64,000 bases of DNA, from the NCBI GenBank assembly GCA_001002765.1, contig LCMS01000001.1:4662-68661 (forward strand), in the 5' to 3' direction. Made by a program: the position numbers and the translations under genes. Source of the stretch: Candidatus Uhrbacteria bacterium GW2011_GWE2_46_68. GTDB lineage: Bacteria > Patescibacteriota > Patescibacteriia > UBA9934 > GWF2-40-263. Below, in pieces: positions 1,028 to 59,390 of the stretch (position 1 is its first letter; every line of letters begins with the position of its first letter). Below the pieces are notes generated by a model that searched no databases, was not told where the DNA came from, and was given only the letters and a program-made list of their open reading frames with translations.

Positions 1028-2812
1028 TTATCGCAGAACGCCACCCCATTCGATCACGCTGAAGCCGTGGCGCGCGGGTACAGGAGGAAGTTTTGGAGGA
1101 TTGGATGGAGCCGCCTCATCCAAAGGTTCGTAATCCATAAGGATGCGCAGCATCATATCCGGATGTATCGAGAAAGTGAGTGGAGCGATTTGATTCATGG
1201 CACGGGTTCCATGAAATCCAATTTTATAATACGAGGCACCTTGCATGCGCGGATACCAGAATTCCATAAAGTCCGCCGTTTCTTTTTCATTGAGTCCAAG
1301 GTTACTCAAAGTGCTTGTGAGAAAAGTTTTCACATCGGATTTTGCGACCACCCAATAGTGTTGCGGAGGCACATACAGTTTTCCCACACCTTCCCAAAAC
1401 AGATACGGATAGGTCGTGCCATCGGCATTCACCAAGGTTCCATCCGGATAAGCCGTCACATGCCAACCACCTTCATAGACAGGTTCGGAAACACTCAAGT
1501 TCGCATCAATCTCTACCGTGACATCGGTCGGTTCCTCGGGATAAAGATAGATGACCGGTTTTCCACATTCTGCCGCAGGCAAAACATCCGTGTTTGTAAA
1601 CTCGATCCAACGTCCAAGCGGATCTTGCCAGTAAAAATAGGGGTGGCCGGAAATAAATTGTTCCCATGTTTTTGTTTCATCACTCATTTGCCAACTCCCA
1701 AAAGCGATTTGATAGTATTCGGTATCATAGGAAGCGACTTCATACACCGTTCCCGACGCCCCATCAACATCATACGTTCCTGCTTCCACCAAGGTTCCAA
1801 TTTCGGATGCTTCGCGCACATTGGCATAGGTGTCCATTCCACATCCTCCCATACCACCCTTGATATAAAGTTTGTCATTTGTAGTCCCATCATTCCATAC
1901 AATAGGAGGAGGAGTGGATCCACTCTCTATCACCACATAAGGATCCGTCCAAAATGGCACATTCATGTCATACCAAATCAAGCGTCCATCTTCGCGTGTC
2001 GTATAAAAACCGTGTGAACCGCTGGCAAAAAATATACTACCTGTTTCTCCTTCAACAAAGACATATTCACTCAATGTTTTGCCTGTCGTCAGTGTGACTT
2101 GGTGAGGAATAATGGTTGGGGAAAAGTTTACATAATCCGCGCGATACCAAGTGCCCATAAATGTGTATGTATTGTCATTAGTATCGACAAGGGAGGATGC
2201 GGGTTCTTCCAGCTCGGGAATTTTCAAAGAAAGATTTGTTTGCACCAAGGTTTTAAGACTTGGAAAATCTTCTAAGAAAGGACGATAGGTATTTGGACTC
2301 GAGAAAGCCGAACCAATAAAAGAGGAGTATTGATCCAACAAAATGGGATCCCCACTTGTGGAAGGAACAAGGAGATACATATGAGCCGTATCTATTCCCA
2401 TACCGGGAAAATCCACCATCATGATGACGAGTTTGTATCCCGCATGGGTTCCTTCCCTGACGGTTCCAAGAAGGAGCGTATGTGGCTCATTTGGAAAATC
2501 CAAATTTTCCCACTCGTCTCCATAATTGTCTTCGTACATTACTTGTGAAAGAGTTGTACGAGATTCCACTTCCATTTGTTCCGTGACCGGAATCCAATCG
2601 ATAGCGAGGGTGTTTTCATCCGTGGGTTCAGACGTATCATCCACAGGTTGATCATTGACGATTGCATCGTTGTTTGTGTTTTCCACCGGTAAAAGTTTCA
2701 TACCAAGGGCGAATCCTCCGAGGAAAACCACAATGGTGATGGCGATCCCCACGCTGATTGAAGCAAAGATCTCGAGAGCCGAGAGTTTGTGCATAGGTGT
2801 TTGGTTCATCAT
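1028..2812 (-). CDS. Membrane-anchored hypothetical protein with C-terminal KPVIYLYP domain
   Basis: 594 aa ORF, N-terminal TM, conserved CGKPVIYLYP...YLFWEG...EWGG domain. Confidence 0.8.
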   Translation of the reverse strand: MMNQTPMHKLSALEIFASISVGIAITIVVFLGGFALGMKLLPVENTNNDAIVNDQPVDDTSEPTDENTLAIDWIPVTEQMEVESRTTLSQVMYEDNYGDEWENLDFPNEPHTLLLGTVREGTHAGYKLVIMMVDFPGMGIDTAHMYLLVPSTSGDPILLDQYSSFIGSAFSSPNTYRPFLEDFPSLKTLVQTNLSLKIPELEEPASSLVDTNDNTYTFMGTWYRADYVNFSPTIIPHQVTLTTGKTLSEYVFVEGETGSIFFASGSHGFYTTREDGRLIWYDMNVPFWTDPYVVIESGSTPPPIVWNDGTTNDKLYIKGGMGGCGMDTYANVREASEIGTLVEAGTYDVDGASGTVYEVASYDTEYYQIAFGSWQMSDETKTWEQFISGHPYFYWQDPLGRWIEFTNTDVLPAAECGKPVIYLYPEEPTDVTVEIDANLSVSEPVYEGGWHVTAYPDGTLVNADGTTYPYLFWEGVGKLYVPPQHYWVVAKSDVKTFLTSTLSNLGLNEKETADFMEFWYPRMQGASYYKIGFHGTRAMNQIAPLTFSIHPDMMLRILMDYEPLDEAAPSNPPKLPPVPARHGFSVIEWGGVLR

Positions 2813-2815
2813 AAA

Positions 2816-4615
2816 TTAAGGGTTAAAGACGGTTGTTATTTTCCCTTGCATCATAACATCGCGCAAAGGTTCGGACGAGAGATCGGCCAGTTCTTCAAAG
2901 ATTTTCGCCGCCTCTTGATCACTCACGGGCGTAGGTTGTTTTTCGATAATGCGATAGGGGAGAATCCATAAGGAAAGATTATTTTTTTCTCGCAATACAC
3001 CCACGGCATACCCTTTGTCCGTCTCAGGCATGGGTTGATCAAAAATGAAATTGCCCATGGAATAAAATACAGGAACGTCATCAATCATCTCGGCTCCTTG
3101 GGTGACGTGTGGATGTCCACCCACAATAAGATCAGCCCCTGCCTCCACCATCAGTGATGCCAAGTATTGCTGACTTGTATCCGGCACGCGCGCATATTCG
3201 GTTCCCCAATGCGGATAGGCAATGACAAAAAGATTTTCCGCAGATGCCTCCTCGATTTGTGCAACCAAGGTTTTCCAACTGCTTTGGAATTGATTGAATC
3301 CCACAAAAGAAACGCTCGTATTTCCCACTTCCATATCAAGACGAGGCGCCGCATCGTTATAAGTGCCAAACCATTTGATCCCAAGACTTGTAAGGGTTTC
3401 CTGCGTGGAAGTCGTGGCCTCTTTCCCATAATCATCCGTGTGATTATTGGCAAGGCTCACAACATCAACATAGAGTGACAAAACTTCATCCGCCTCGATC
3501 GGGAACACAAAAGGGTAGGGGGCCTCATGCGCATTTTTACGTTCCCAATCTCCTACGGTTCCCTCATGATTGCCGATAACCGTGTGAGTACCCGATAAAA
3601 ATCGTTCCATGTTTTGCCAAGGATAATCATAGCCATGCTCTTCCATTTCGGTTCGCACACTGCGGTCAAGCATGATGTCGCCGATCATGGTGAGGCTCAT
3701 AAACGTACCGTTTTCCGGAGGGCCACTTGTGAAGTAGCCCAAGATATGGCTGGTATTATCTTCAGGATCATTTGTGGCTCCCATCAAAATAGAACTGCCG
3801 CGATAGAGCGGATGCCACACTTGCGAGCCGTGTTCCTTGTTAAACGCAAACAAAATACGCAGGAGCGCATTGGAATCGGTTTCGAGTTCGCATCCGCGAC
3901 AATCACCATGAGCAAGGGCGGTCAAAGTGACCTCGTCATGAAAGGCCGCGATGTACTCGGGAAGATAGTGGGACATGTCGGCGCTGCCTATCAACAAGGC
4001 ATTAGGAAGAGTTTGAGCAATGGTTGTGCCCAAGATCGTCGCTTGCTCAAGAGTGAGATTGTCATGGACAATAATGGGGACAAGTTTGGCGTTTGGAAAA
4101 GATTTTTTGATAAACGGGGTGAGGGCGGCAATGCCGTGTTCCTTTGCAAAAGCTTCTTCCTCTTGTGCAAGCTCGGTATTTTTTGACAACAGTTCAACTA
4201 CAGCTCCCTCATCTGTTTCCAAAATGCCATAAGGTGTTTGCCAATTTCCTAAAGAGATTTGAGCAAAAGATCGTCCAACCGAAAAATGATTGGGGCTTAT
4301 TAGGACGATGGTGTGCACATCTTCATTACCGATGGTATAAAAAGTTTCGGCGATTTTGTGAGCTACAAGGAGATGATGGGCTGCAAGCGCGCTTTGGACA
4401 GCATTTTTCTCCTCATGCCATTTCGCTTGCGCATAGGCGGACTCATAAAAGTTTTGATCTTGCAGGCCGGAGGAATAAAGAGGGGAATCGTCTTCATGTA
4501 TTAAAGAGGGGAGGAAAACATATTGAGATCCCAAAAAAATTCCCAAACAAAAAAGACCTGTGAAAAGACAGATCCAAACCATCCAAGAAAAAGAAGAGTG
4601 GGGGAGAAGGGTCAT
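2816..4615 (-). CDS. MEMO1/AmmeMemoRadiSam protein B domain fused to CapA-like metallophosphatase
   Basis: AHHL, SPNHF, EHGI, SADMSHY (MEMO); GDIMLDR, LANNH, HWGTEY, GGHPHV, YSMGNFIFDQ (CapA). Confidence 0.85.
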   Translation of the reverse strand: MTLLPHSSFSWMVWICLFTGLFCLGIFLGSQYVFLPSLIHEDDSPLYSSGLQDQNFYESAYAQAKWHEEKNAVQSALAAHHLLVAHKIAETFYTIGNEDVHTIVLISPNHFSVGRSFAQISLGNWQTPYGILETDEGAVVELLSKNTELAQEEEAFAKEHGIAALTPFIKKSFPNAKLVPIIVHDNLTLEQATILGTTIAQTLPNALLIGSADMSHYLPEYIAAFHDEVTLTALAHGDCRGCELETDSNALLRILFAFNKEHGSQVWHPLYRGSSILMGATNDPEDNTSHILGYFTSGPPENGTFMSLTMIGDIMLDRSVRTEMEEHGYDYPWQNMERFLSGTHTVIGNHEGTVGDWERKNAHEAPYPFVFPIEADEVLSLYVDVVSLANNHTDDYGKEATTSTQETLTSLGIKWFGTYNDAAPRLDMEVGNTSVSFVGFNQFQSSWKTLVAQIEEASAENLFVIAYPHWGTEYARVPDTSQQYLASLMVEAGADLIVGGHPHVTQGAEMIDDVPVFYSMGNFIFDQPMPETDKGYAVGVLREKNNLSLWILPYRIIEKQPTPVSDQEAAKIFEELADLSSEPLRDVMMQGKITTVFNP

Positions 4616-4772
4616 AATGATTTTATCATACGGGTTTTTGGGGTGTTCGTCATTTCTTGTTTATCTTTTATAATGTGATGACTCTAGGGGAAGGTTTGAA
4701 ATGACGGGAGAAGAAAAGATGATAAATCACTCAAAAAACCCCAATAAAAACGCAAAAAGATGGGGTTTTTTC

Positions 4773-4801
4773 TTGACACATACGTTATTTTATGATACGT
4801 T
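4773..4801 (+). promoter_or_regulatory. Sigma70-type promoter
   Basis: TTGACA-17nt-TACGTT with extended TG. Confidence 0.6.
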
Positions 4802-5074
4802 GGCGCGTTCTAAAAAGTGCGTTTTTCAAAAGGAACGTCGTGCAATCAAGCGGTTTGATAGGCGTATAACATCTCCTCCTTGTTATACGTTCTGTCGAAC
4901 CACTTGAGTGCATGGCTAGAACGTAGGATTTGATTTATTGATCAAATCTTTCGTTCTAGTCAAAGGCACAGCTCCTTACAAGGAAGACTAACCCAAAACT
5001 AGAAGTTCGAAGCTCGACAACACCCCCACTACGGCGGAGAACCCGCCGTTTCCACTCGAAACAGGAGCCACACC

Positions 5075-6493
5075 ATGCGTACCTTCGTCACTCTCTTCGG
5101 TCTTTTCTTCGTTTTCGCCACCCCGGCCTTCGCGGCCGACTACTACCTCGACAATGACGGCGACGGCTACGGACAGACCACGGTCAAGCAGGCAAGCACC
5201 GCGACCGCGGCCCCCACGGGCTACGCGGCCGACAGTGGTGACTGCAATGACACCGACGCCGCGATCAACCCGGATGCCATCGAAGGGTGGGGTCAGGCCG
5301 GCGACAAGATCGACCAGGACTGCGACGGTTCCGACCGCCCCCTGCCCACGATCCCGGCCGATGCGGGGAGGAAGTTCAAGAAGAACTACCCCACGATGAA
5401 TGCCCTCGTCCTCGCGCGTACCTACGGGTACTGCGGGGTGACCGCGGGCTGCGTGATCAACAACACCGATGGCAAGTTCGAGGTCACCACGGCCGGCCAG
5501 GCCTTGTGTGACATGACCGTGTCGCGCGGATATTGGAAGCTCTGGGACGAAAACCAGTGCGCCCAGACCGCGGGCCTGATGTCCTCCCGTGGTGGTGGTC
5601 TCGGCAAGAGCACCGTCGAGAAGATGATCGCCGATGGGAACGCGCCCCTGGCGGCCCGCATCGATGAGGTCGCCCAGGCCTCCTACGACTTCGATATGCG
5701 GCTCGACGAGAGGATCGAAGTCCTGAACATCGCGGTCCTGACGGACAACAGGCGGCTCGATGACCTCGAGGAAGCGGCCGAGTTGTTCGACACCCGGCTC
5801 GATGACCTCGAGGAAGCGGACGTGACCCTGACTCGTGATATCAACGAGGTGTTCGATTCCCAGGTCGCCCTCGTTGGTGGCAGGAAGTCCGATGGCTCGG
5901 TCGTTCCGCCCGAAAAGTCCCGTATGAGTGTGGTGGAGGCAGGGGTCATGGACCTTTCTGACAACGGCATCATGGTGCTCGGTAGCTTTGGCGGAAACGT
6001 CGGCTACCAGCGGCCCTATGCCGTGCAGGAAGGCGGACGCTATGTCCGTGATGCGATGTTCGGTTCGGTCGGCGTCGGGGGTTTCCTTGGCGGCCGGTTC
6101 GGCCAGTTCCAGATGGGCGCTTCCGGCCTCGGAACCCGTACCTGGGATCCGAGCTATGGCAACAGCTTCACCCTCGGCCTCGAGGGCACCTACTTCCCCG
6201 GTGACATGGGCTTCGGCCTGTTCCTGGGTGGCGGGTCCCACGAGTCCGGAGGCAAGCCTCCGGTCGAGTCGACCGTGATCGGCCGCTACGGATTGGTCGG
6301 TTTGCAGGGCGTGTGGAACGCCCCGATCAACGGATACGGTATGTTCCAGATCGTCCCCCGCCTCTCGGCTGGCATCGAGGTCTTCGGGACCAAGGCCAGC
6401 GACGGTGAGAACGTGATCGTCGATGCCCAGCCCGGCGCCCTGCTGATGTTCTCCCTCGAGCTCCGCGCTGGCGCGGGACCCAAGGGCATCTAG
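5075..6493 (+). CDS. Secreted protein: MopE-like metal-binding motif, coiled coil, C-terminal beta-strand-rich (barrel-like) domain
   Basis: Signal peptide (PAFA/A), DNDGDGYG...DCND...NPDA.E...DQDCDG, heptad region, alternating Gly/hydrophobic strands; AGGAG SD; high GC. Confidence 0.8.
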   Translation: MRTFVTLFGLFFVFATPAFAADYYLDNDGDGYGQTTVKQASTATAAPTGYAADSGDCNDTDAAINPDAIEGWGQAGDKIDQDCDGSDRPLPTIPADAGRKFKKNYPTMNALVLARTYGYCGVTAGCVINNTDGKFEVTTAGQALCDMTVSRGYWKLWDENQCAQTAGLMSSRGGGLGKSTVEKMIADGNAPLAARIDEVAQASYDFDMRLDERIEVLNIAVLTDNRRLDDLEEAAELFDTRLDDLEEADVTLTRDINEVFDSQVALVGGRKSDGSVVPPEKSRMSVVEAGVMDLSDNGIMVLGSFGGNVGYQRPYAVQEGGRYVRDAMFGSVGVGGFLGGRFGQFQMGASGLGTRTWDPSYGNSFTLGLEGTYFPGDMGFGLFLGGGSHESGGKPPVESTVIGRYGLVGLQGVWNAPINGYGMFQIVPRLSAGIEVFGTKASDGENVIVDAQPGALLMFSLELRAGAGPKGI

Positions 6494-6748
6494 ATAGATA
6501 GAGTCTTCCTACGTTACGAGGGCGAGTGGTTCAATCCCATCTCGCCCGTCTTGCAAAGGTGTTGAGCATTGCCTCGACAACTTTGCGAAGATTCGTTCAT
6601 TTACATTGGATTAAAAGAGAACCGGGGATGTGAGAGAAAAAGAATGAGAAATTTTTTTCCTTCACACCCCTGGTTTTACTAGGGATTTCGAAAGACCAAC
6701 CCAGTACGGGCGAGGTTTCCTCGCCCAACTTCAACAAGGAGTTCCACC

Positions 6749-7399
6749 ATGCGTTCTCTTCTTCTCTCCCTTCTTTCCCTCTCCGTCGCCTGCGGTCCGG
6801 CCTGGTATCAGGGTCCTGCTCTGGAAGACACCTGTGAGGAGGCCGACACGGATACCGATTCCGACAGCGACAGCGACACAGACTCGGACACCGACTCCGA
6901 CACCGACTCCGACACCGACGTGGTCGTCGAGACCGACCCGTGCGAGGGGAAGGATCTCTGCATCGACTTCGAGACCCCCGGTGGTGTCGAGGTTGAGAAC
7001 GTGTACTTCCATGCCCACGTGATCGACGATGATGACGACTTCGATGCCATGGTGGCCGGCACGGTCAACTGGCCGGACTGGACCATCAACCTGACCTTCG
7101 ATGACATCGAGGAAGCCAGCGTCGGCCTGGACACGGGCTACATCGCGGCGGTGCGGTACAACGTGTCGTTCTGCGACGGTCACGAGGATGGCGACGACGG
7201 TGATGCGGACCACTGCACGTGGCTCGCGTACGGTCGTACCAGCTCCGAGGCCTACCTCACGGCCGACACCGAGGTCTGGTATTGGGGAGAGGACTACGAT
7301 CCCGAGACCATGACCTGGTGCTACGACACCGAAGGTGACACCGACTCCAACGACGACGAGTGTGGAACCTCGGTCGTCGCTGGTCCCAGCGTCGACTGA
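6749..7399 (+). CDS. Acidic putative lipoprotein with Asp-Thr/Asp-Ser repeat
   Basis: Lipobox-like LSVAC, DTDTDSDSDSDTDS tract, AAGGAG SD, high GC. Confidence 0.8.
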   Translation: MRSLLLSLLSLSVACGPAWYQGPALEDTCEEADTDTDSDSDSDTDSDTDSDTDSDTDVVVETDPCEGKDLCIDFETPGGVEVENVYFHAHVIDDDDDFDAMVAGTVNWPDWTINLTFDDIEEASVGLDTGYIAAVRYNVSFCDGHEDGDDGDADHCTWLAYGRTSSEAYLTADTEVWYWGEDYDPETMTWCYDTEGDTDSNDDECGTSVVAGPSVD

Positions 7400-7416
7400 T
7401 CCACACGTTTTGCTAC

Positions 7417-7450
7417 GGCCCCCGTTGAGCTTTGCTCCGGGGGCTTTTCT
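7417..7450 (+). terminator. Intrinsic terminator
   Basis: GGCCCCCG...CGGGGGCT followed by T-rich tract. Confidence 0.7.
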
Positions 7451-7537
7451 GTTTCTTTAATCAAAAAATAGAACATAAACAAATCCCTCCGAAGTCCACG
7501 CCGATGGCGGGGAAGAAGGGGGGGATTCTGTTTCAAA

Positions 7538-7589
7538 AGGGGCGAACGGCCGTTTTGTACGGTAGGGGCGAACGGCCGTTCGCCCCTAC
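7538..7589. repeat. GTAG-type REP-like palindrome (one partial, one full)
   Basis: GTAGGGGCGAACGGCCGTTCGCCCCTAC at 7562-7589. Confidence 0.85.
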
Positions 7590-7616
7590 CTTAGCCAAAA
7601 AGCGACCGTGATGGCC

Positions 7617-7645
7617 TTGACAAAATGACGTTTTTTTGTTATAGT
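7617..7645 (+). promoter_or_regulatory. Sigma70-type promoter
   Basis: TTGACA-17nt-TATAGT with extended TG. Confidence 0.7.
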
Positions 7646-7811
7646 AGGACGTTCAGAATTTGGCAAAAGTACACGGATTTGCGCCATGTTTACAAGGATA
7701 ATGCTTGCGAAGACCTGTTACGAAGCGGGTTTAGCCGGCAACACACGAGGGTGAGAGTAGGGAATCCAAAGGGATTTCCATATCCACACCCTCAAACGGG
7801 TGTTTTTTCAT

Positions 7812-7862
7812 AATTTCCAATCCCTTCATTCATTAGAAATTGGAAATTAGTAATTGGAAATT
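7812..7862. repeat. Heptamer (RGWAATT) repeat element, truncated copy
   Basis: CATT-AGAAATT-GGAAATT-AGTAATT-GGAAATT, same family as 31942-32675. Confidence 0.75.
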
Positions 7863-8048
7863 TACCCACCTCCTTGTCCCCATAGTGCAACTCCGTGACT
7901 TGAGGAAGTTCTTTCCAATAGAACGGAGAAACAGCAAAAAGATCAGTCAACCATACGGGCAAGGTTCTATCCCTGCCCACCCACACCAAACCCGCACGCT
8001 TGCGTGCGTCACGCTTCGCGTTCCAACTACCCCAAGGAGAAAAACACC

Positions 8049-9857
8049 ATGCGTTCCCTTCTTCTCGCTACTCTCATCTTCACCTCGGGCTGCAACCCAG
8101 CTTTCATCTTCGACGGCACCTCCACTGACACCGGCAGCGTCATCGACGACGACACTGGCATCCAGATCGAGGACACCGACATCGAAGATGGCTTCGAGCA
8201 GGGCCCCCAGATCGATCCCGACGACCTCGACAACCTCTTCGACGAGGACGAGACCGACGCGGACGAGGACGGCAGCCCGGCTTCCGAGGACTGCGACGAT
8301 CACGACGACGATGTGTACCCTGGTGCCACCGAGAAGTGCGACGGCGATGACAATGACTGCAACGGCGAAGTGGACGAGGGCTGCTCCGACAGCTCCTACA
8401 CCTACTACCGCGACAGCGACAGCGACGGGTACGGCGACAGCGCCGTGACCACGACCGTCACCACGGCCACGGCCCCCACGGGCTACGTCGCAAACGATGA
8501 CGACTGCGATGACATGAGCGCAGCCGTGAGCCCCGCCGACGCCGAGATCTGCAACAGCATCGATGACGACTGTGATGGCAGCGTGGACGAGGGCGTCACC
8601 ACCACCTTCTACGCCGACACCGATACCGACACCTATGGCAACGTGGCCTCCACCAAGGCCGCGTGCAGCCAGCCCACGGGCTACGTCGCAAACGATGATG
8701 ACTGCAACGACAGCACCTCCTCGGCCCACCCGGGCGCGACTGAGAGCTGCAATGACAGCATCGACAACGACTGCGATGGCGATACCAACGAGGGCTGCAC
8801 CGGCAGTGCCTCGGACAACGATGGCGACGGCTACACCGAGGACGGCGGCGACTGCGATGACACCGACAACAGCGTCCACCCGGGCGCCACCGAGACCTGC
8901 GACAGCGAGGACGACGACTGCGACGGCATCGTGGATGAGAGCGTGACCGTGACCTACTACCGCGACAGCGACAGCGACGGCTACGGCGTGGCGACCACCA
9001 CGATCGCGGCCTGCTCCGCACCGAGCGGGTACGTCACCAACTCGACCGACTGCAATGATGTGAGCGGAAGCGTCCACCCGGGCGCGACCGAGACCTGCAA
9101 CTACACGGATGACGATTGCGACGGATCCACGGACGAGGGCGTGATCAACACGTACTACCGCGACAGCGACAGCGACGGCTATGGCGTGAGCACCACGACC
9201 ACGGCCGCCTGTTCCGCTCCCACGGGCTACGTCACGAACTCGACTGACTGCAACGACACCAGTGCGGCCGTGAGCCCCGCCGATGTCGAGATCGACAATG
9301 ACATCGATGATGACTGCGACGGTACGATCGACGAGGGCTTCACCAGCACCTCGGATCCCTGCAGCGGGCAGCTCGCCTGCTTCGTGAACGATGACAGCGA
9401 CAGCTACAACGATGTCCTCTACGTCCATATGTCCCTCTTCACCCAGGGCTCGACCTACCAGACCCACGACGCGGTCGTGGTCGGGATCGGCGGCTCCTGG
9501 GACCTGAATGACGACAACGTGGCCGTGATCGAAGATGGTTCGTGGTTCGTGATCGACCCCAGCACCTGGTCGTGCGGAGTCGAACAAGATGTCACCCTCG
9601 TGTCCTCCCTGGACAACGACGGCGTCGATCTGTTCGATGAGTACGACTGCGATACGGATGAAGAGCTCGAGACGTCCGCCTGCGACGGAGTAGTTTCCTA
9701 CGCCACCTGGTCTTCCGAGGCCATCTGGCTCCAGAATTACGCCTTCTGCACGGGCGGATCGACGATCGCCGGCCAGATCTGTGAAAGCCAGGGCACCACG
9801 TCGTACCTCTTCTCCCTGGAGGTCGACTGCAGCACCCGCGAGTTCCGGGCGGATTAG
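8049..9857 (+). CDS. Putative lipoprotein with 6 MopE-related metal-binding repeats
   Basis: Lipobox-like FTSGC; DC(D/N)D...PGA.E.C...DDDCDG.VDE x6; ATG 8049 after AAGGAG. Confidence 0.88.
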   Translation: MRSLLLATLIFTSGCNPAFIFDGTSTDTGSVIDDDTGIQIEDTDIEDGFEQGPQIDPDDLDNLFDEDETDADEDGSPASEDCDDHDDDVYPGATEKCDGDDNDCNGEVDEGCSDSSYTYYRDSDSDGYGDSAVTTTVTTATAPTGYVANDDDCDDMSAAVSPADAEICNSIDDDCDGSVDEGVTTTFYADTDTDTYGNVASTKAACSQPTGYVANDDDCNDSTSSAHPGATESCNDSIDNDCDGDTNEGCTGSASDNDGDGYTEDGGDCDDTDNSVHPGATETCDSEDDDCDGIVDESVTVTYYRDSDSDGYGVATTTIAACSAPSGYVTNSTDCNDVSGSVHPGATETCNYTDDDCDGSTDEGVINTYYRDSDSDGYGVSTTTTAACSAPTGYVTNSTDCNDTSAAVSPADVEIDNDIDDDCDGTIDEGFTSTSDPCSGQLACFVNDDSDSYNDVLYVHMSLFTQGSTYQTHDAVVVGIGGSWDLNDDNVAVIEDGSWFVIDPSTWSCGVEQDVTLVSSLDNDGVDLFDEYDCDTDEELETSACDGVVSYATWSSEAIWLQNYAFCTGGSTIAGQICESQGTTSYLFSLEVDCSTREFRAD

Positions 9858-9891
9858 CCGTTCCGTTCGTCTCCGTTCCTACGTTATACGC

Positions 9892-9950
9892 GAGCCCCTT
9901 GTCTTTGTTCACACTTCGGTGTGTTCATTGACCAGGGGCTCTTGTTGTTT
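9892..9950 (+). terminator. Long 3' hairpin / terminator
   Basis: GAGCCCCT...AGGGGCTC with CACAC-TTCG-GTGTG apex and T-rich tail. Confidence 0.6.
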
Positions 9951-9967
9951 TCAAGGTTGATGATCCG

Positions 9968-10017
9968 GTAGGGGCGAACGGCCGTTCGCCCCTACCGTAC
10001 CGGCCGTTCGCCCCTAC
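9968..10017. repeat. GTAG-type REP-like palindrome (full plus partial)
   Basis: Full 28-mer at 9968-9995, half copy 10001-10017. Confidence 0.85.
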
Positions 10018-10023
10018 GATTCA

Positions 10024-10052
10024 TTGACATTTTTGCCAAAATATGGTAAAAA
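10024..10052 (+). promoter_or_regulatory. Possible sigma70-type promoter
   Basis: TTGACA-17nt-TAAAAA with extended TG. Confidence 0.45.
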
Positions 10053-10219
10053 CTTAGGCCAATTTTGGCTGAAAATATCGCTGATTTGACATAAAAACCT
10101 CTGGTTTAGGGATTTTTATGTCAGGTCAGTTCAGAGGTTCCTTCCACCATCGTGCGTTACGACCTGGCGCGCGATATTTCCAACAATGACCCGACCCCCA
10201 ACCCTCAAGGGAGGTTTCC

Positions 10220-12955
10220 ATGCGTCTTTTTCTGTGTGGTCTCTTTCTCATCTCCGGCTGCGAGTTTTTCGGCCCGGCCAGCGTTTTCGACGACACCAAG
10301 CCCGATGATTCGGGCACTATCGACACCGGTGCCCCCTGCGAAGAGCAGGCCTGGTACCGCGACAGCGACGGCGATGGGTACGGCATCTCGGTTTCCGAAA
10401 CCTGGGCCTGTGAGGCCCCCGAAGGCTTCGTGGCCAACGGCAAGGACTGCGATGACGACGACCCTGCGGTCAACCCCGGAGCGGTCGAAGTCTGCAACGG
10501 GATCGATGACAACTGCGACGGTGAGATCGACAACGATCCCGACGGCGACGACATCTGGTACATCGACGCGGACAGCGATGGCTACGGCAACCCGGACATG
10601 GCCCAGGACTGCGATGGCTATGACTGGTTCGTGAGCCAGGCGGGCGACTGCAACGATCTCGACCCCGCGGTCAACCCCGCGGCCACCGAGCTGTGCGACG
10701 AAGTCGACAACGACTGCGACGACACGATCGACGAGGATGATGCGGCCGATGCCACGCCCTGGTACGAGGACTTCGATGGCGATCTCTACGGCAACCTTGC
10801 CGTGGTGCGTGACGCCTGTGCGGAGCCCGAGGGCTACGTGGCCGACGCAACCGACTGCGATGACACGGACGCGGGTGTGAACCCCGACGCCAGCGAGTTC
10901 TGCGACGAGAAGGACAACAACTGCAACAGCGAAGTGGACGAGGGTGTGACCCTCACCTTCTACGCCGATGCTGATGCCGATCTCTACGGCGACGTGGGCA
11001 ACACCACGGAGGCCTGCCTCCTGACCGACGGCTACACCGAGGACGCAACCGACTGCGATGACGATGATCCCGCGGTCAACCCCGGCGCGGTCGAAGACTG
11101 CAATGGCATGGATGACGACTGCAACGGCGAAGTGGACGAGGGCGTGACCCTCACCTTCTACGTCGATGTCGACGCCGATCTCTATGGCGACGCGATGGTC
11201 TACGTCGAGTCCTGCGAAGCCCCCACGGGCTATGTCGCGGACGCGACCGACTGCAACGATGCCACGGCAAGCGCCTACCCGGGCGCTGACGAGTACTGCG
11301 ACACCCTCGACAACGACTGCGACAGCGTGGTCGACGAGAGCGACGCGATCGATGCCGGCGACTGGTTCGCGGATGCGGATGGCGACCTCTACGGTGATGT
11401 GACCATGGCCTTGCGCGCCTGCATGGCGCCCATGGGCTATGTCGCGGACGCGACCGACTGCAACGATGACACTGCGAGCGCCTACCCCGGCGCCAGTGAG
11501 TACTGCGACACCCTCGACAACGACTGCGACAGCGTGGTCGACGAGAGCGACGCGATCGATGCCCCGACCTGGTACACCGATCTGGACACGGACGGCTACG
11601 GCGACGCGATCACGGCCACCTTCTCTTGCACCGCCCCTGCGGGCATGATCGAGGACGGCACGGACTGCGATGACCTGGACCGTTCGGTTCATCCCAATGC
11701 CACCGAATTCTGTGATGAGATGGACAATGACTGCGATGGCCTGGTCGACGAAGAGCGGGGCAACCTGTTTTTCGCCGATGCGGATGGCGACGGTTTCGGT
11801 GACCCCTCGGTCTCTTCGGAGGCCTGTGCGGCTCCCTTGACCTATGTCGCTGACGACACGGACTGCGATGACACCGACGCGGGTGTGAATCCCGGCGCCG
11901 ACGAGCTCTGCAACGGGCTCGATGACGACTGCGATGGCACGCTGGACGAGGATGCCACGGAAATGAGCGCCTGGTACCTGGACTACGACAACGATTCCTT
12001 TGGGAATTGGATGGCGCAGACCTGGTCGTGTGATCAGCCCGCAGGCTATGTGGCTGACGCCACGGACTGCAATGATCTTCTCTCCTCGGTTTTCCCAAGC
12101 GCCTCCGAGACCTGCAACGGGCTCGATGACGACTGCGACGGCACCACCGATGAGGGGGTGAAGACCACTTTCTACGCGGATGCGGACGCGGACGGCTACG
12201 GCAACGTGGCTGTGACCGAGGAAGCTTGCGATCCCTCCGAAGGGTTCGTCTATGATTCCACGGACTGCGACGATGCCGATGTGGATGTGAACCCCGGCGC
12301 CGACGAGTTCTGCAACAGCCTCGATGACAACTGTGATGGCACGGTGGACGAGGATGATGCGGTCGACGCCCCGACCTGGTACGCGGACAGTGATCTCGAC
12401 CTCTACGGTGATGAGAACAACACCCTGGAGGTGTGCACCGCTCCCGCGGGCTACATCGCCGACGCGACCGACTGCGATGACACCGATGATCTCGTGAACC
12501 CCGAGGGGATCGAGATCTGCGATGACACGATCGACAACGACTGCGACGGGGACACCGACCTTTCCGACGAGTGCCTCTATGAAGGAACCTACACGGGAAC
12601 CTTCGAGGCCGATGTTACCTTGACCGCCTTCGGGATCACGGACACCTGTGAGGGTGCTGTGGAGCTCGATGTTGCGATCGACGGGGAGCCCATGATCTTC
12701 GGTGAGGCGTCATGTGCCTTCTCGGGATTGTTCGCCACCTATTACGCTGACGACATCATCGGCGCGATCGAGGGAGACATCTTCTCGGACATGGATGCCG
12801 AGGGCGATCTCTACGATGACGACGAGATCTTCTCGTCCATCTGGACCGGGATTTTCGACACCGATGAGCTCGACGCCACGTTTGTGGGTGAGGGTACCCT
12901 CCTTGGGTACGCCTACACCTATGACGGGACGTTCGAGACGATTTACACGCCCTAG
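10220..12955 (+). CDS. Putative lipoprotein with 11 MopE-related metal-binding repeats
   Basis: Lipobox-like LISGC; (W/F)Y.D.D.DGYG...DC(D/N)D...NPGA.E.C...D.DCDG units; GGGAGG SD. Confidence 0.9.
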   Translation: MRLFLCGLFLISGCEFFGPASVFDDTKPDDSGTIDTGAPCEEQAWYRDSDGDGYGISVSETWACEAPEGFVANGKDCDDDDPAVNPGAVEVCNGIDDNCDGEIDNDPDGDDIWYIDADSDGYGNPDMAQDCDGYDWFVSQAGDCNDLDPAVNPAATELCDEVDNDCDDTIDEDDAADATPWYEDFDGDLYGNLAVVRDACAEPEGYVADATDCDDTDAGVNPDASEFCDEKDNNCNSEVDEGVTLTFYADADADLYGDVGNTTEACLLTDGYTEDATDCDDDDPAVNPGAVEDCNGMDDDCNGEVDEGVTLTFYVDVDADLYGDAMVYVESCEAPTGYVADATDCNDATASAYPGADEYCDTLDNDCDSVVDESDAIDAGDWFADADGDLYGDVTMALRACMAPMGYVADATDCNDDTASAYPGASEYCDTLDNDCDSVVDESDAIDAPTWYTDLDTDGYGDAITATFSCTAPAGMIEDGTDCDDLDRSVHPNATEFCDEMDNDCDGLVDEERGNLFFADADGDGFGDPSVSSEACAAPLTYVADDTDCDDTDAGVNPGADELCNGLDDDCDGTLDEDATEMSAWYLDYDNDSFGNWMAQTWSCDQPAGYVADATDCNDLLSSVFPSASETCNGLDDDCDGTTDEGVKTTFYADADADGYGNVAVTEEACDPSEGFVYDSTDCDDADVDVNPGADEFCNSLDDNCDGTVDEDDAVDAPTWYADSDLDLYGDENNTLEVCTAPAGYIADATDCDDTDDLVNPEGIEICDDTIDNDCDGDTDLSDECLYEGTYTGTFEADVTLTAFGITDTCEGAVELDVAIDGEPMIFGEASCAFSGLFATYYADDIIGAIEGDIFSDMDAEGDLYDDDEIFSSIWTGIFDTDELDATFVGEGTLLGYAYTYDGTFETIYTP

Positions 12956-12982
12956 CTACGGCTATAGGAGGCGGATAACACG

Positions 12983-13014
12983 AAGCGGCAGCTGACGACC
13001 AGCGCCGCTTTTTT
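12983..13014 (+). terminator. Intrinsic terminator
   Basis: AAGCGGC...GCCGCTT-TTTT. Confidence 0.7.
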
Positions 13015-13026
13015 CGTTGAGAAGTA

Positions 13027-13222
13027 GGGGTCAGGTCCGGACATCGGACTTTTTGGAGAGACAATGAAAATTTAACGCATTTTTTACTTTTTTTAGAAGA
13101 TATTCATCACTTTTTTATCCATCAATGCATTAAAACTGAAAAAATATAAGGAGCATTTTCCTCAAAATAAGAGAAGTATTTTTGATCTTTCTTGAAAAAG
13201 TCCGATGTCCGGACCTGACCCC
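13027..13222. mobile_element. MITE-like element with perfect 28-bp terminal inverted repeats
   Basis: GGGGTCAGGTCCGGACATCGGACTTTTT at 13027-13054 and its reverse complement at 13195-13222; AT-rich interior. Confidence 0.65.
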
Positions 13223-13260
13223 ACAACCCGATTTGTTTTGTGCTACAATACACTTAAGAT

Positions 13261-14814
13261 ATGGTGGAATTTCGATCTCTTTACGCCCACGCGGAGGAAC
13301 ATATCACATTGCTCACTTTTGGATTATTCATCCTGCTTGGAGCTTTGCTTATTTTGCAAAGCTTATTTTCTCCATTTTTGATTTTGTCGATCCTTCTTGT
13401 GATCGGCTTTTTTATTTTGAGTTTTTATCGCCCGTTGTGGACCCTTGCCTTTGTTGCCATCTATCTTCCTTTTGAAAGTGTGCTCCTTAAGTTTATTCCC
13501 GAGGATATTTATGTGTTCGCGCGTTACTTTTCCGAAGGGCTTATTTATCTTCTTTGCGCGGTCGTTCTTTGGCATATCCTTTCAGGAAAAATAAAACTAC
13601 GACACACACCGATCGATTTTCCTTTCATCTTATTCGTGATTATTCTTCTTTCCTCCGCACTTATTAATGTTGTAGAACCCACCGTAGCCGTTTTAGGAAT
13701 CCGTCAGATCATTCGGTTCATTCTGGTTTTTTATCTTGTCTCTTACCTGCGTCCGTCCAAAACCTATATCAAACGCCTCACCGCCGCGATGTTTGCGGTT
13801 GTATTGGGAGAATCTCTCATCGGCATCACCCAGTCGTTTGTTGGAGAATCTATGGACGCTTTTTTACTGCCTTCGGACATGCGTTCGCTTGGAGACATCA
13901 CTCTTACTTCGGGTGTTTCCCAATTTTGGGATCCTGGGTCGCGAGTATTCGCCACTCTTGGACGTTATGATCGCCTTGGAAATTTTCTTTATTTGTTCCT
14001 TTTGATGGGCGTGGGATTCTTGTATGAGGCGCGCAGTTGGGTGGATCGTCGACAATTATGGCTTCTTTTTGCTTTGGGGCTTCCCGCTTTGCTGCTCACG
14101 TATTCCCGTTCATCTTGGTTTGCATTTTTGTTCGGGTTTTTATTTGTGAGCCTTTGGATCAAACGTGATCGTCGCGTGGCGATTGCGTTTGCCGGATTTT
14201 TGATTGTGATCGCCTCTTATCTCACACTCACTGGATTACAAGTACGATTCATCACCGAGGCTCCGGGGCAAACCTTGACCGAACGTTTTTATGAGACGTT
14301 TAGTTATGCCAGGTGGCGAGGGGAATATATCGGACTTGGACGTGTATTTTGGTTCGTGCAGACGATCACGACCGTGGTGCCTGCATCTCCGTTGTTTGGA
14401 TTTGGTCCGGGACAATATGGTGGAGGAGCCGTGGCTGCACTTGGAAACGCGGTGGTATATGAGAGGTTGGGATTACCCTATGGCGTGTTTGGCACCGAAG
14501 GCATGATTGATAACAATTGGTTTTCTCTGTGGGGAGAAAGTGGAACGCTCGGCATCATTTTTTACGGATGGATGTATATCGGACTTTTTCTTTATGCCTT
14601 GCGCGTCTATCATCGCAGTCAAGACCCGACCGTTCGTGCTATGGCCATGGGACTTGCGGCCATACTTCTTGGCGTGGGATTCAATGCGTTTACATCGACC
14701 GTTTTGGAAATTCGTACGCTTGCATTTTATCTTTGGCTCTACGCGGGCTTTTTGTATGTGTTGGATCAAAAACGTCCGCGTGCGAAACATCGTCGCTTAA
14801 AAGAGGAGATATGA
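13261..14814 (+). CDS. O-antigen ligase/Wzy-like polytopic membrane protein
   Basis: Multiple TMs, LLTYSRSSW, GFGPGQY, DNNW...ESGTLG. Confidence 0.85.
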   Translation: MVEFRSLYAHAEEHITLLTFGLFILLGALLILQSLFSPFLILSILLVIGFFILSFYRPLWTLAFVAIYLPFESVLLKFIPEDIYVFARYFSEGLIYLLCAVVLWHILSGKIKLRHTPIDFPFILFVIILLSSALINVVEPTVAVLGIRQIIRFILVFYLVSYLRPSKTYIKRLTAAMFAVVLGESLIGITQSFVGESMDAFLLPSDMRSLGDITLTSGVSQFWDPGSRVFATLGRYDRLGNFLYLFLLMGVGFLYEARSWVDRRQLWLLFALGLPALLLTYSRSSWFAFLFGFLFVSLWIKRDRRVAIAFAGFLIVIASYLTLTGLQVRFITEAPGQTLTERFYETFSYARWRGEYIGLGRVFWFVQTITTVVPASPLFGFGPGQYGGGAVAALGNAVVYERLGLPYGVFGTEGMIDNNWFSLWGESGTLGIIFYGWMYIGLFLYALRVYHRSQDPTVRAMAMGLAAILLGVGFNAFTSTVLEIRTLAFYLWLYAGFLYVLDQKRPRAKHRRLKEEI

Positions 14815-26502: not shown

Positions 26503-29500
26503 ATGAACGATGTACTCAAAATGGGAAAGAAAGCATTTACCGTGTTCGTCGCTGCGGCCACTTTGTTGTGGACCGTCGGTGTAGTGTCTTTTGTTGCCCC
26601 TTTGGCCGCAAAAGCCGCTTCTTACGATGCCGGTGATCTCATTAAAGGTGAAACCTTCTCAACCGTTTATTACTACGGAACAGATGGTCTTCGCTACTCT
26701 TTCCCAAACGAAAAGACGTATTTTACTTGGTATACTGATTTCGACGATGTCGTTACCATTTCCGATGAGGATTTGGGTGACATTTCCCTTGGCGGCAACA
26801 TTGTGTACCGCCCGGGATCCCGCTGGATCAAGGTAGATAATATGGCCGAAGTCTATGCAGTTTCCACTGATGGAACCATCCATTGGATCGAAGATGCCGA
26901 TGTGGCCGAAGACCTTGCTGGCGCAAATTGGAACCAATTTATCGATGACGTTCCAGATGTATTCTTCTCTGATTACGCTGCTGGTGATTCCATTGTAGAT
27001 GCCAGCGAAGGATATGATGGCATGCTTGTCGATGATGAAGGAACCACCTATCTCATCTGGGATGGCGAAAAGCGTGAAGTGTCCGATATGGATGCCAACC
27101 GTTTTAACAGCGATTATGTGCTCGATGGCGATGGTGTCGATCTCGACAGCATGACCACGGGTGATGAGATTGATTCCGAACTTGATAACATGACCGATAC
27201 CGCCCAGGTGGTAGATGAGGAAACCTATACCGAAACCACCGAAGTGACCGTGAGCGTAGCCGATGATTCTCCAGATTCACTCACCCTCGCTTCCGGTACG
27301 GATACAACTGTTGACGTGAATGGTTTTGCCAATCTCGTCAGCTACGAATTTGACAACCCAACCGATGAGGATTTGACCGTCACAAGTTTTGCTTTGAATC
27401 GTGGTGGTGTGTCTTCTGACACAACACTCTCAAACGTCTATCTTTTTGATGGATATGTACGTTTGACCGATTCCGCCACTCTTTCAAGCGGAAAAGTGAC
27501 TTGGAACGACACCTCCGGTCTTTTCACGATTCCAGCAGGTACCAGCGCGACCATTGATGTCTGGGGCGATATCGCCTATGCCACCTCCGGTCAAACGGTG
27601 TACCTCAAGATTGCTTCAGCCGATGACATCACTTTTGATGGCAGCTATGAGGCAACAGGAGACTTCCCACTCCAAGGCGCAACTCACAGTATTGCGACGG
27701 TTTCAAACCTCTCATACTTTGATGTGAACGCCACGACAACTCCTTCAGCTTCATCCATTGATGCTCAAGACGATTATCGTATTTGGGAAAATACCGTAAA
27801 CATCGGTAACAATGAGATGTATCTTTATTCCATCCGTTTCCGTAATATCGGATCCATCGATGCTGATGATATCGAAAACTTCCGATTGTATGTGGCCGGT
27901 GTGAATTATGGCGATGCCGTTGCAAACCAGGATGCCAATGGATACGTCACCTTCGATCTCTCCGACGACCCAGTCAAGATGAATACCGGTAACCATATCG
28001 TGAAAGTTTTGGCTGATATTATCGGTGGATCTACTCGCACAGTCTCCATGTCTTTGCGCACAGCCGCTGACGTGGTTGCTATGGACGAGGATTACGATCA
28101 AGCCACGGTTACAACCGATGGCGGCGGAACAGCTTTCGCCAACCATGATGCAGGTGCACAAACCATCAACAGTGGAACCTTGGTGATCAGCAAGTCATTG
28201 ACTTCAGCTTCTGGCAATGTCACCAATGGCGCCACCAACATGTCACTCGCAAAGTTTGACGTGAAGGCATATGGAGAAGACATGAAAGTTGAAAACCTCA
28301 ACTTCTATGTTGATGAAAGCGACAACGACACAGCATTCACCCTCCGCAATGGCGCGGTTTATGCTGACGGTGTCCAAATCGGAAGCACAGCAGCCCTCGC
28401 TTCCAATAGCGATGCCACCCTTGCTTACACAGCTTATACTTTTGGTTCATCCCTTGTGATCGAGCCGGGAGAGACTGTTGTGATCGAAGTAAAAGGTGAC
28501 ATTTATGACAGCGATGGTACCAATGATTGTGCCAATGCCGATACCTTGCAGGTCAACATGGACAACACGACTTCAAGCAACGTCTTGCGAAGAACATCCG
28601 GAAGCTACACAACCTATCCATCTGCCGATGTAGCTGCAAACACCCTCACAGTTGCCCAAGGCAGCTTGACGGTCGCAAAGAACACTTCTTATGCCGATCA
28701 GAGCACCGTTGCTCCAAAGACGGCTTATAAGCTCGGTTCTTTCACCATTGCTTCTTCAACAACCGAAGTTGTGAACATCACCCAGTTTGATGTGGATTTC
28801 ACTGATGCCGATGCTTTCGATGCCTCTGATGATTTGACCAACCTCTATATTGAGTATGGTCCAACATCTGCATACAACACGAGCTCCATCAAAGGAACCG
28901 TGACAGATTCAGATAATACCTGGTCTGTGAACTATGCCTTGGCAGCCAGCACCACCATCTATGTGAACATCTATGCCGATATCCCAACCAGTTCAACAAA
29001 TGGTGATGGCATAGCTGACACGATGCGCCCAAGCCTGACCATTACAGCCCAAGGTGCCTCCTCTGCCGCTGATGCTTCAGCCACAGTTGTGACCGGACAA
29101 ACCGTTACTTCAACAACCGGTTCTTTCACCGAGTCTGAAGATTCTATGCCAGCAGCCAAGGTGGTTGCGGCAAACCAGGAAGTTGAAGCAGCCAAGTTCC
29201 GCTTCACCGCTTCCAATGAGACCTACAACATCAAAGAGGTGACCGTCTCTGTGACAAGCGCAACCGTAGCCGGTGTGATCGGTACAGCAAACCTGTACGA
29301 CGGTTCCACCTTAATCGGTTCTGCCGCTTTTGATCAGAGCAGCAACATGCGAGCCCTCATTTATGTGACAGGTGGTCTCGAAGTGCCTTATAACACCTAC
29401 AAGACTCTCACCGTCAAACTCGATTTGAACGATGTGGGTACAGGTTCGGGTACTTCTCAACAGGACGCAGCCATTACCCTTTACTCAGTGAAGTTTGCTG

Positions 29501-30264
29501 ATTCCACCGGCGTGGAGACAACCGAAACGTCAGGAACAGAATTCTCTGGTTTGGCCGGTAACTCGGTTTACGTCTACAAGTCCATCCCAACCGTCAGCAT
29601 CGTTGATTTGACAAACAATGATTTGTCAAACGGCAATGCCCAGGATATCTACAAGTTTACCGTCGCAGCAGCCAGCAACAGCTCGATTGCTCTCAAGCAA
29701 ATCAAGCTCAATGTGACCTGGAGCGATGGCGGAACCGACGATACCCTCGAGGTTGAAACCCTCAAGTTCTACAAGAATGGCACGGATATTTCTTCCAGTG
29801 TCACCATCGTAGACGAGGACGGAAACCTTGTGTCAAGCACCAGTGGTTTGCTCGAAACCGATGGCACATGTGTCATTACCTTCAGTAGCACAGAGGACAC
29901 CATCTCCGCAGGCAGCTCGGTTACTTACACCGTCAAGGGAACCCCAACCGGTTTCCGCGTGCTCGGTGCAACCGATACAGCTCGCGACAGCGTGGCTCTC
30001 TACCTCAAGGGTGATGCATCACACAATGGAACCAGCACATATTTGAACGATGAAACCGATATTGGCGCAGGTCAGTCCGAGATTATGGAACTCCTTGACA
30101 GTGCAGCCGTCAGTTCCAGCGATGGTACTGCCGCGAACTTCATCTGGTCTGATATGAGTTCGATCTCCCACACCTACGACATCAACGCTTCGTCTTCAAG
30201 CGATTGGGCAAACGGTTACTTGGTCTTGAATCTTGATTTGGATTCAGAATCATGGGGCCGATAG
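26503..30264 (+). CDS. Large secreted S-layer-like surface protein
   Basis: Signal peptide (LAAKA/A), GDLIKG...VYYYG.DG.RY.FPNEKTYFTWY domain, long S/T/D-rich beta repeats; start 26503 or 26521. Confidence 0.8.
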   Translation: MNDVLKMGKKAFTVFVAAATLLWTVGVVSFVAPLAAKAASYDAGDLIKGETFSTVYYYGTDGLRYSFPNEKTYFTWYTDFDDVVTISDEDLGDISLGGNIVYRPGSRWIKVDNMAEVYAVSTDGTIHWIEDADVAEDLAGANWNQFIDDVPDVFFSDYAAGDSIVDASEGYDGMLVDDEGTTYLIWDGEKREVSDMDANRFNSDYVLDGDGVDLDSMTTGDEIDSELDNMTDTAQVVDEETYTETTEVTVSVADDSPDSLTLASGTDTTVDVNGFANLVSYEFDNPTDEDLTVTSFALNRGGVSSDTTLSNVYLFDGYVRLTDSATLSSGKVTWNDTSGLFTIPAGTSATIDVWGDIAYATSGQTVYLKIASADDITFDGSYEATGDFPLQGATHSIATVSNLSYFDVNATTTPSASSIDAQDDYRIWENTVNIGNNEMYLYSIRFRNIGSIDADDIENFRLYVAGVNYGDAVANQDANGYVTFDLSDDPVKMNTGNHIVKVLADIIGGSTRTVSMSLRTAADVVAMDEDYDQATVTTDGGGTAFANHDAGAQTINSGTLVISKSLTSASGNVTNGATNMSLAKFDVKAYGEDMKVENLNFYVDESDNDTAFTLRNGAVYADGVQIGSTAALASNSDATLAYTAYTFGSSLVIEPGETVVIEVKGDIYDSDGTNDCANADTLQVNMDNTTSSNVLRRTSGSYTTYPSADVAANTLTVAQGSLTVAKNTSYADQSTVAPKTAYKLGSFTIASSTTEVVNITQFDVDFTDADAFDASDDLTNLYIEYGPTSAYNTSSIKGTVTDSDNTWSVNYALAASTTIYVNIYADIPTSSTNGDGIADTMRPSLTITAQGASSAADASATVVTGQTVTSTTGSFTESEDSMPAAKVVAANQEVEAAKFRFTASNETYNIKEVTVSVTSATVAGVIGTANLYDGSTLIGSAAFDQSSNMRALIYVTGGLEVPYNTYKTLTVKLDLNDVGTGSGTSQQDAAITLYSVKFADSTGVETTETSGTEFSGLAGNSVYVYKSIPTVSIVDLTNNDLSNGNAQDIYKFTVAAASNSSIALKQIKLNVTWSDGGTDDTLEVETLKFYKNGTDISSSVTIVDEDGNLVSSTSGLLETDGTCVITFSSTEDTISAGSSVTYTVKGTPTGFRVLGATDTARDSVALYLKGDASHNGTSTYLNDETDIGAGQSEIMELLDSAAVSSSDGTAANFIWSDMSSISHTYDINASSSSDWANGYLVLNLDLDSESWGR

Positions 30265-58059: not shown

Positions 58060-58067
58060 AGATGTCT

Positions 58068-59378: not shown

Positions 59379-59390
59379 CCTTTGATATCT

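Follow-up and report, generated by a model that had tools for sequence, protein, structure and literature searches.

Why should a tiny groundwater bacterium of the Candidate Phyla Radiation (CPR) that depends on a host keep, among its own genes, others whose codons, ribosome-binding sites and lipoprotein signals look like those of a different kind of bacterium? The question is raised by a four-gene block at 4773..13014 of a 64,000-nt stretch of Candidatus Uhrbacteria bacterium GW2011_GWE2_46_68, here called the window (contig LCMS01000001.1, positions 4,662-68,661, or G000:C1:4662-68661); coordinates below are those of the window unless a genome or locus is prefixed. The genome, G000, comprises 1.06 Mb in 30 contigs, has ~46% GC and is 99% complete; the homologues that bear a taxon name assign it to Candidatus Uhrbacteria. 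An earlier description of this DNA, the sequence-only reading, had reported four GC-rich open reading frames (ORFs) on the plus strand, and this is borne out, with GC of 0.62-0.64 and third-position GC (GC3) of 0.81-0.86. All four also start, as it stated, with ccATGCGT 5-9 nt 3' of a Shine-Dalgarno (SD) motif, AGGAG, AAGGAG, AAGGAG and GGGAGG, respectively. Among the 972 genes called in G000 by our own caller, this start occurs six times, and together with an SD only in these four.

The four genes belong to an old second gene class of Uhrbacteria, which is selectively maintained across the order and is distinct in its codons, SD, base before the ATG, stop codon and lipobox. In G000, no partner machines were detected for domains that the class encodes. 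A host-directed function of its proteins, wherever they are made, seems probable to us, and we rate it likelier than either host translation or a second translation regime at home taken alone. More tentatively, and at somewhat less than an even chance, we favour a division of labour in which the parasite transcribes the messages and a high-GC host with two membranes, most likely one of the Myxococcota, translates them. No published description of this gene class was found in a literature search.

A second gene class with its own starts, stops and codons

Examined genome-wide, GC3 and SD use form a bimodal class, a pattern that the sequence-only reading had proposed to look for. The median GC3 of all genes is 0.42, and an SD of at least 5 nt precedes 17 of the 25 genes with GC3 of at least 0.65 versus 40/699 genes with GC3 below 0.45, where 2% is expected by chance. 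The base before the ATG is C in 89% of 55 SD genes and T in 73% of 715 core genes. The claim that core genes start with cattATG and lack an SD thus holds for the four core genes named, but as a rule only the T at -1 is general, cattATG making up 18 of the 972 starts.

We defined the class by an SD of at least 4 nt plus a C at -1, which gives 75 genes in G000 with GC3 of 0.33-0.91 (median 0.51), the four block genes being its most extreme members. These ~75 accessory genes are dispersed over many contigs, and their SD is tied to a different usage of codons, stops and lipoboxes; GC3 forms a continuum within G000. GC-rich segments number 26 and amount to 31 kb, spread over 14 contigs. The stop is TAG in 15 of the 22 class genes with GC3 of at least 0.6, and in 56/92 of those in relatives, while core genes prefer TAA. 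Glycine at lipobox position -3 is found in 7 of 18 non-class lipoboxes versus 0/8 in the class, 4/69 in genes of relatives and 1/60 in donor-type genes.

The class promoters, TTGAC-17-TAnnnT, are of the same type as those of core and rRNA genes, which fits home transcription and to this extent supports the earlier claim that the CPR bacterium itself transcribes the block. Leaders of high-GC3 class genes are more structured than the regions upstream of core genes. In the family of ORF1, the first gene of the block, leaders are 218-503 nt long with a median fold z of -7.1, and CGTTC follows four bases 3' of the -10 box in 19 of 24 promoters.

In its codon choice, the class is closer to free-living bacteria of high GC than to CPR core genes. 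At matched GC3, the root-mean-square difference of the class is 0.066-0.095 to Myxococcota-type genes versus 0.10-0.148 to GC-rich Uhrbacteria core genes (two genomes), and a Myxococcota model beats the uniformly GC-shifted own code in 34 of 37 loci. With 11 references compared, each of the four gene sets is matched best by a Myxococcota set and worst by the Uhrbacteria cores. Other free-living high-GC references are close behind, so that the codons point to a free-living bacterium of high GC without naming its phylum. The largest shifts are losses of AAA, CAA, TTT and ATT, and the class tolerates GAA, GAT, GGT and CGT, as free-living high-GC bacteria do.

A codon class of highly expressed genes was considered and ruled out. 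The class resembles translational codon selection in highly expressed genes in its constant offset, typical of mutation-selection balance, and in its preference for TTC, ATC, AAC and ACC; unlike such selection, this is absent from the ribosomal-protein, EF-Tu and chaperone genes of G000. In a set of 25 core genes, identified by known motifs and coding for ribosomal proteins, EF-Tu, EF-G, GroEL, DnaK and others, codon usage is at background and two genes have an SD-like match. The earlier concern that highly expressed native genes might share the high GC3 and SD use proved unfounded. Long secreted core proteins reach a GC3 of 0.50 at most.

Maintenance across the order

MopE repeats are present in 39 of 41 genomes of the order, representing seven families and including one single-contig genome. 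In many relatives the array lies between a wzz-like gene and an O-antigen ligase gene and often opens with an ORF1-like gene; gene order is the same in many of them and array content differs among genomes. Of 73 family genomes, 26 have the barrel domain of ORF1 in single copy; at 50% identity, this domain counts 62 representatives.

For the comparison of GC3 with the genomic background, genes were labelled by protein family alone, enough codons were required, and two sources were dropped for lacking one class. Class GC3 exceeds that of neighbouring core genes in 35 of 35 genomes, with a mean logit offset of 1.77 and a slope of 1.21, and it follows the background of the resident genome over 0.32-0.97. 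In the same genomes, an SD is present in 70/97 class versus 25/241 core genes. The non-repetitive ORF1 carries the full offset, and MopE genes at 53 non-CPR loci differ from their neighbours by 0.09.

The sequences suggest that ORF1 is largely vertically inherited. Its tree mostly follows genera (g4, g38, and g23 with g8; g6 and g17 are mixed) and correlates with that of the wzz-like gene (r 0.54) and weakly with that of the ligase (r 0.31), and all three taxon-named full-length homologues are from Uhrbacteria or Patescibacteria. Core synonymous differences, compared in six pairs within genera and one pair across genera, amount to 0.54-0.90 and are mostly saturated, and ORF1 GC3 is still 0.66-0.97. 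Between ORF1 and the homologue L054, third-position GC gains and losses balance, with a dN/dS of 0.12-0.37. A fixed gap over a moving background is expected of mutation-selection balance, not of capture and decay. Old CPR-specific families that stay GC3-rich, for which trees had been proposed as a check, were thus found.

A recent island of horizontal gene transfer (HGT) was rejected. The best non-CPR matches are 42-52% identical, over repeats only, and the near-identical donor that the earlier description associated with recent HGT was not encountered; nor is there decay to background, the offset being present in all 35 genomes despite saturated core sites. The model of Lawrence and Ochman reportedly concerns horizontally acquired islets and ORFans under amelioration. 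Like these, and like phage morons, the class has an atypical composition and its own promoter, SD and terminator, is inserted between conserved genes and varies in content. Unlike ameliorating islets, its offset outlasts synonymous saturation and keeps a constant gap to the background, and ORF1 is largely vertical.

When 20 complete CPR genomes were sampled at 60 kb each, a clear offset appeared solely in two genomes of the same taxonomic class. New here are an offset that stays constant across the order after synonymous saturation, the comparison of codons at matched GC and the contrast in lipoboxes. In practice, class genes would mislead HGT calls and binning based on composition.

Translation in a host or at home

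High-GC-style codons, SD and lipobox, together with a predicted barrel in a lineage where the insertion machine was not found, suggest that the messages are likely parasite-made and meant for a myxobacterium-like host. Residues 294-470 of ORF1 are predicted to fold as an eight-stranded barrel of the OmpA/OmpW/NspA type; in a 64-row alignment, lipid-facing hydrophobic alternation is clear on six of the eight strands and weak on strands 5 and 6. At the sequence level, ORF1 has no Pfam match to outer-membrane protein families. Unlike OmpA, OmpW and NspA, it occurs in a monoderm lineage, where BamA (PF01103) is over cut-off in 0/121 genomes of the order and Lnt was not detected, and its barrel is C-terminal on a coiled-coil stalk. 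A separate class cluster at L105:2305-6914 (G000:C10) holds genes for an NMT1-type lipoprotein, a vWA protein and an OmpA C-terminal domain, the last found in 13 of 121 genomes of the order, all within this family. In G004, two SD-led, GC3-rich pilin genes (L036:15421-16475) have an IAIP-S/N-F motif unlike the native pilin of the window and are possibly host-type pilins.

Two protein families converge on Myxococcota, which is also new here. Like Myxococcota surface proteins with MopE repeats, ORF3 and ORF4 match PF11617 (168 and 328 bits, above the gathering score; ORF1 has 25.5 bits, just below 27), with 42-49% identity over their repeats; for ORF4, the top genome hits come from Myxococcota and Deltaproteobacteria records, at 42-49%. 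The second family is the RNA polymerase alpha subunit's C-terminal domain (alpha-CTD), which one class gene carries with up to 89% identity to Myxococcota-type RpoA, and which is lacking from the RpoA of G000 itself (G000:C7:52068-52811). Most sampled genomes of the same taxonomic class have no match to the alpha-CTD, and it is mostly kept in other CPR classes. The affinity to a Myxococcota-like diderm put forward earlier is supported by codons, lipobox and protein matches. The result thus supplies a candidate cargo list with a sequence signature, and a candidate host phylum from two independent protein families.

We suggest that a native sigma70 promoter would drive each cassette and yield an mRNA shielded by hairpins, which would be passed to the attached host; a relaxase-less type IV secretion system is the candidate conduit. 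There, the ribosomes, Sec, Lgt/LspA and BAM of the host would install the ORF1 barrel and the three MopE/DTDS lipoproteins in its envelope, giving the parasite a patch to dock on that binds calcium. Host physiology would be adjusted, much as by early phage genes, by further class genes: alpha-CTD decoys, a kinase, DnaJ, ThiF and MshEN. If mRNA is indeed exported to a host, the dialect of codons, SD and lipobox would name the host of an uncultured CPR lineage by sequence alone.

The nearest working analogue is the T-DNA of Agrobacterium, whose genes are written with the expression signals of the recipient, delivered by type IV secretion and expressed by the recipient. In both cases genes held in a bacterium carry expression signals of another cell; delivery in Uhrbacteria is the conjectural part. 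T-DNA is one border-flanked DNA block that is moved by a relaxase, uses host promoters and enters a eukaryote. The Uhrbacteria class, in contrast, consists of ~75 dispersed genes with native sigma70 promoters, no relaxase was found, and the presumed recipient is a bacterium. Of the signals that are recipient-type in T-DNA, codons, SD and lipobox are foreign-type here, promoters are native-type and the stop is unlike that of Myxococcota. As for secretion ATPases, the genome has one VirB4-like and two VirD4-like matches. The relaxase family PF03432 was found in 0/21 genomes, with positive controls detected, and PF13814 in 0/21, where no positive control gave a signal; relaxase families other than these two were not searched. 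CPR type IV secretion clusters mostly lack a relaxase according to PMC12102498, and essentiality of the system is reported for Saccharibacteria in PMC12857230.

It can be speculated further that Uhrbacteria are cellular parasites with a phage-like takeover, in which ~7% of the genes are transcribed at home, the hairpin-protected mRNA leaves through the conserved type IV secretion system that lacks a relaxase, ribosomes of a myxobacterial host translate it, the outer membrane of the host is rebuilt as a docking site and its RNA polymerase is decoyed. We regard this full scenario as possible but doubtful.

Several observations weigh against translation in a host. To our knowledge, there is no case of mRNA delivery between bacterial species. 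The median GC3 of the class is modest at 0.51, the SD genes of G000 with GC3 of 0.45-0.65 are fitted better by the own-core model, and one MopE gene in genome G003 lacks the offset (0.45 vs 0.43). Myxococcota lead other high-GC bacteria by a small margin of ~0.004-0.01 per codon, and for the four genes one half-set falls below Acidobacteria and Microvirga; Myxococcota-type loci are mostly TGA-stopped, unlike the TAG-preferring class. Only 5 of 64 members of the ORF1 family end in F or Y, and with the aromatic beta-signal missing the usual BAM signal is not evident. The 16S 3' end, GGATCACCTCCTTT, has the full anti-SD that the sequence-only reading suggested checking for, and Lgt and LspA are encoded in G000 (119/121 and 116/121 genomes of the order, respectively), so that the CPR bacterium could in principle read SD and lipobox itself. 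SD-like motifs are also found with a few core genes. The search for a class-specific export signal found none: the CGTT start fits the general YRY start element described in PMC12641261. Finally, fluorescence in situ hybridization shows two families of the order SG8-24 unattached or on lake snow, according to PMC9166423.

The strongest competitor, which we consider somewhat unlikely, is a second translation regime at home, in which the own ribosomes use SD pairing during one life stage, e.g. attachment with host-derived tRNA or amino-acid pools. The class proteins would then be displayed or delivered as host mimics, with the ORF1 barrel as a stalk-tip anchor in the host outer membrane. The intact anti-SD, the presence of Lgt and LspA and a full complement of 46 tRNAs, by which all class codons can be read, speak for it, as do the VirB4/VirD4-like ATPases, which could export proteins, and ORF1 itself, with its head-stalk-barrel order and non-aromatic C-terminus. 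Two side observations concern the same machinery: the tRNA set is unusual in having Arg-GCG without Arg-ACG and Ile-TAT with just two CAT tRNAs, and bS21, which bears on a possible sequestration of the anti-SD, has a weak match alone, below cut-off, at G000:C13:21664-21816. Further support comes from G378 (32% GC, same taxonomic class), where seven SD-led accessory cassettes, including lipoproteins (L283, L303, L323), show no GC3 offset. Thus, the SD alone is a signal usable at home; for these cassettes, translation in a host predicts a low-GC host. However, codon selection of ~1.8 logits that leaves the ribosomal-protein, EF-Tu, GroEL and DnaK genes untouched is hard to obtain from one tRNA pool, the long secreted core proteins stay at or below their GC3 limit of 0.50, and the class lipobox is unlike the native one. 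Even if the class is translated at home, two codon and initiation systems under order-wide selection and a barrel without BamA need explaining.

Selection on the nucleic acid is improbable in our view. High GC3 would here stabilise abundant messages or avoid nucleases or cryptic promoters, and translation would take place at home. This would agree with the strongly structured leaders, with the loss of AAA, CAA, TTT and ATT as the largest codon shifts, and with TAG being the sole stop that ends in G. However, a uniform GC shift of the own code performs worse than the foreign code in nearly all loci, the class still admits GAA, GAT, GGT and CGT, and the inner spacers show no enrichment. SD, lipobox, barrel and alpha-CTDs are also left unexplained.

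Repeated gene-by-gene capture from high-GC donors into fixed slots, at varying stages of amelioration, we find quite improbable as an account of the whole class. It draws on the ORF4 and alpha-CTD matches, on the ORF4 repeats, which score equally well against Myxococcota/Deltaproteobacteria and CPR, on the GC3 continuum and on the variable array content, and the MopE repeats and alpha-CTDs may have originated in this way. However, class GC3 tracks the resident genome with a slope near 1, and third-position change is stationary. The non-repeat domains of ORF2-4 match CPR in 12 of 13 rows, one being a G000 paralogue. Capture, which the sequence-only reading had offered as its alternative, fails to explain ORF1, whose tree mostly follows genera and whose three named homologues are all Uhrbacteria/Patescibacteria; as most of the 62 representatives are without a taxon, a donor-side family keeps a small probability.

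That the block is an artefact of assembly or binning, or a side effect of GC-biased conversion driven by repeats, is highly improbable: although repeats break assemblies and no listed contig covers the whole block, its junctions are bridged in runs from two other studies, MopE genes recur nearly order-wide, even in a single-contig genome, with a gene order shared by many relatives, and conversion is contradicted by the lack of an offset in non-CPR MopE genes and by the full offset of the non-repetitive ORF1.

The four cassettes and their surroundings

All elements of the block lie on the plus strand. ORF1 is preceded by a sigma70-type promoter, TTGACA-17-TACGTT, followed after 4 nt by CGTTC, the predicted start (4773..4801), and by a leader (4806..5074; fold z -7.6) with two long hairpins, an A/C-rich stretch and the SD AGGAG 7 nt 5' of the ATG; the first hairpin is almost the same in L054. 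ORF1 (5075..6493, 472 aa) contains a signal peptide, one MopE-like motif, the coiled-coil stalk and the predicted C-terminal barrel, and is followed by hairpins without a U tract (6518..6600). ORF2, for which the promoter search found no promoter of its own, may be co-transcribed with ORF1. It encodes a predicted lipoprotein (6749..7399, 216 aa, SVA-C15) with a DTDSD repeat linker and a beta-rich domain without a clear solved relative, and ends at a terminator-like hairpin with a T tract (7412..7452).

The ORF3 cassette follows repetitive extragenic palindromic (REP)-type palindromes (7538..7593), further copies of which occur elsewhere in the genome. It has the promoter TTGACA-17-TATAGT, then 4 nt and CGTTC (7617..7645), and a structured 400-nt leader (7650..8048; fold z -6.6) with native heptamer repeats at 7838 and the SD AAGGAG. 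ORF3 (8049..9857, 602 aa from the ATG; PF11617 E 4e-50) is predicted to be a lipoprotein (TSG-C15); it has Asp/Cys repeats of the MopE type, and the listed matches to its C-terminal domain all come from CPR loci. A hairpin with a T-rich tail (9892..9941) and further REP-type palindromes (9966..10017) separate it from the ORF4 cassette, where a TTGACA with a poor -10, a hairpin leader and the SD GGGAGG (10024..10219) precede ORF4 (10220..12955, 911 aa; PF11617 E 5e-100). This predicted lipoprotein (ISG-C14) has many MopE-type repeats and a C-terminal beta domain that is TbpB-like by structure, under the bar for naming. A terminator-like hairpin with a T tract closes the array (12980..13014). 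The lipobox cysteine of ORF2-4 at position 14-15 comes from a pattern scan, and lipidation is a prediction.

Some details of the sequence-only reading had to be corrected. Native genes, given there as 35-38% GC, average 45.3% (43 native window genes, range 33-52%), and the supposedly AT-rich spacers have 46-50% GC in the three inner cases, near the genome average, with the outer flanks alone at 39-41%. The TTGACA promoters reported for three genes stand for ORF1 and ORF3, but that of ORF4 has a poor -10 (TAAAAA). The repeats are indeed shared with the rest of the window: the REP copies at 7562 and 9968, of 13 in the genome, have counterparts at 17348 and 30856, and the heptamer run at 7838 has one at 32419.

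The block is flanked by a CapA/Memo-domain gene and an O-antigen ligase gene. The interval 2500-6901, with the left part of the block, is covered by one contig of run X4, a possible source run, with zero differences, and the junctions are bridged at 4047-5009 and 12654-13302 in run X8 and at 12734-13544 in run X6. Most of the block is covered at even depth by a strain ~90% alike in run X12, and no contig among those listed spans all of it. That this is not a simple block transfer agrees with the earlier view, and no chimeric join was seen.

Between ORF4 and the ligase gene lies a ~196-bp element (13027-13222) resembling a miniature inverted-repeat transposable element, with 45-nt inverted ends, across which joints are visible in contigs from three runs. 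Another MopE lipoprotein, related to ORF4, is encoded next to a second O-antigen ligase with 70% identity (G000:C26:2260-6459), and the wzz-like gene sits apart at G000:C17:223-732; the ancestral array locus seems to have been duplicated or split in G000. Elsewhere in the window, 26503-30264 encodes a secreted core protein of 1253 aa that is a candidate for a major surface protein; its gene has a slightly elevated GC3 (0.50) and lacks an SD. The region 58062-60665 holds two tandem paralogues of ~430 aa from a family present at many loci. Small genes of low GC3 (0.26-0.35) with heptamer-repeat flanks, such as 31993-32364 in the window and L037:5790-6212, are found both among core genes and inside the arrays of relatives.

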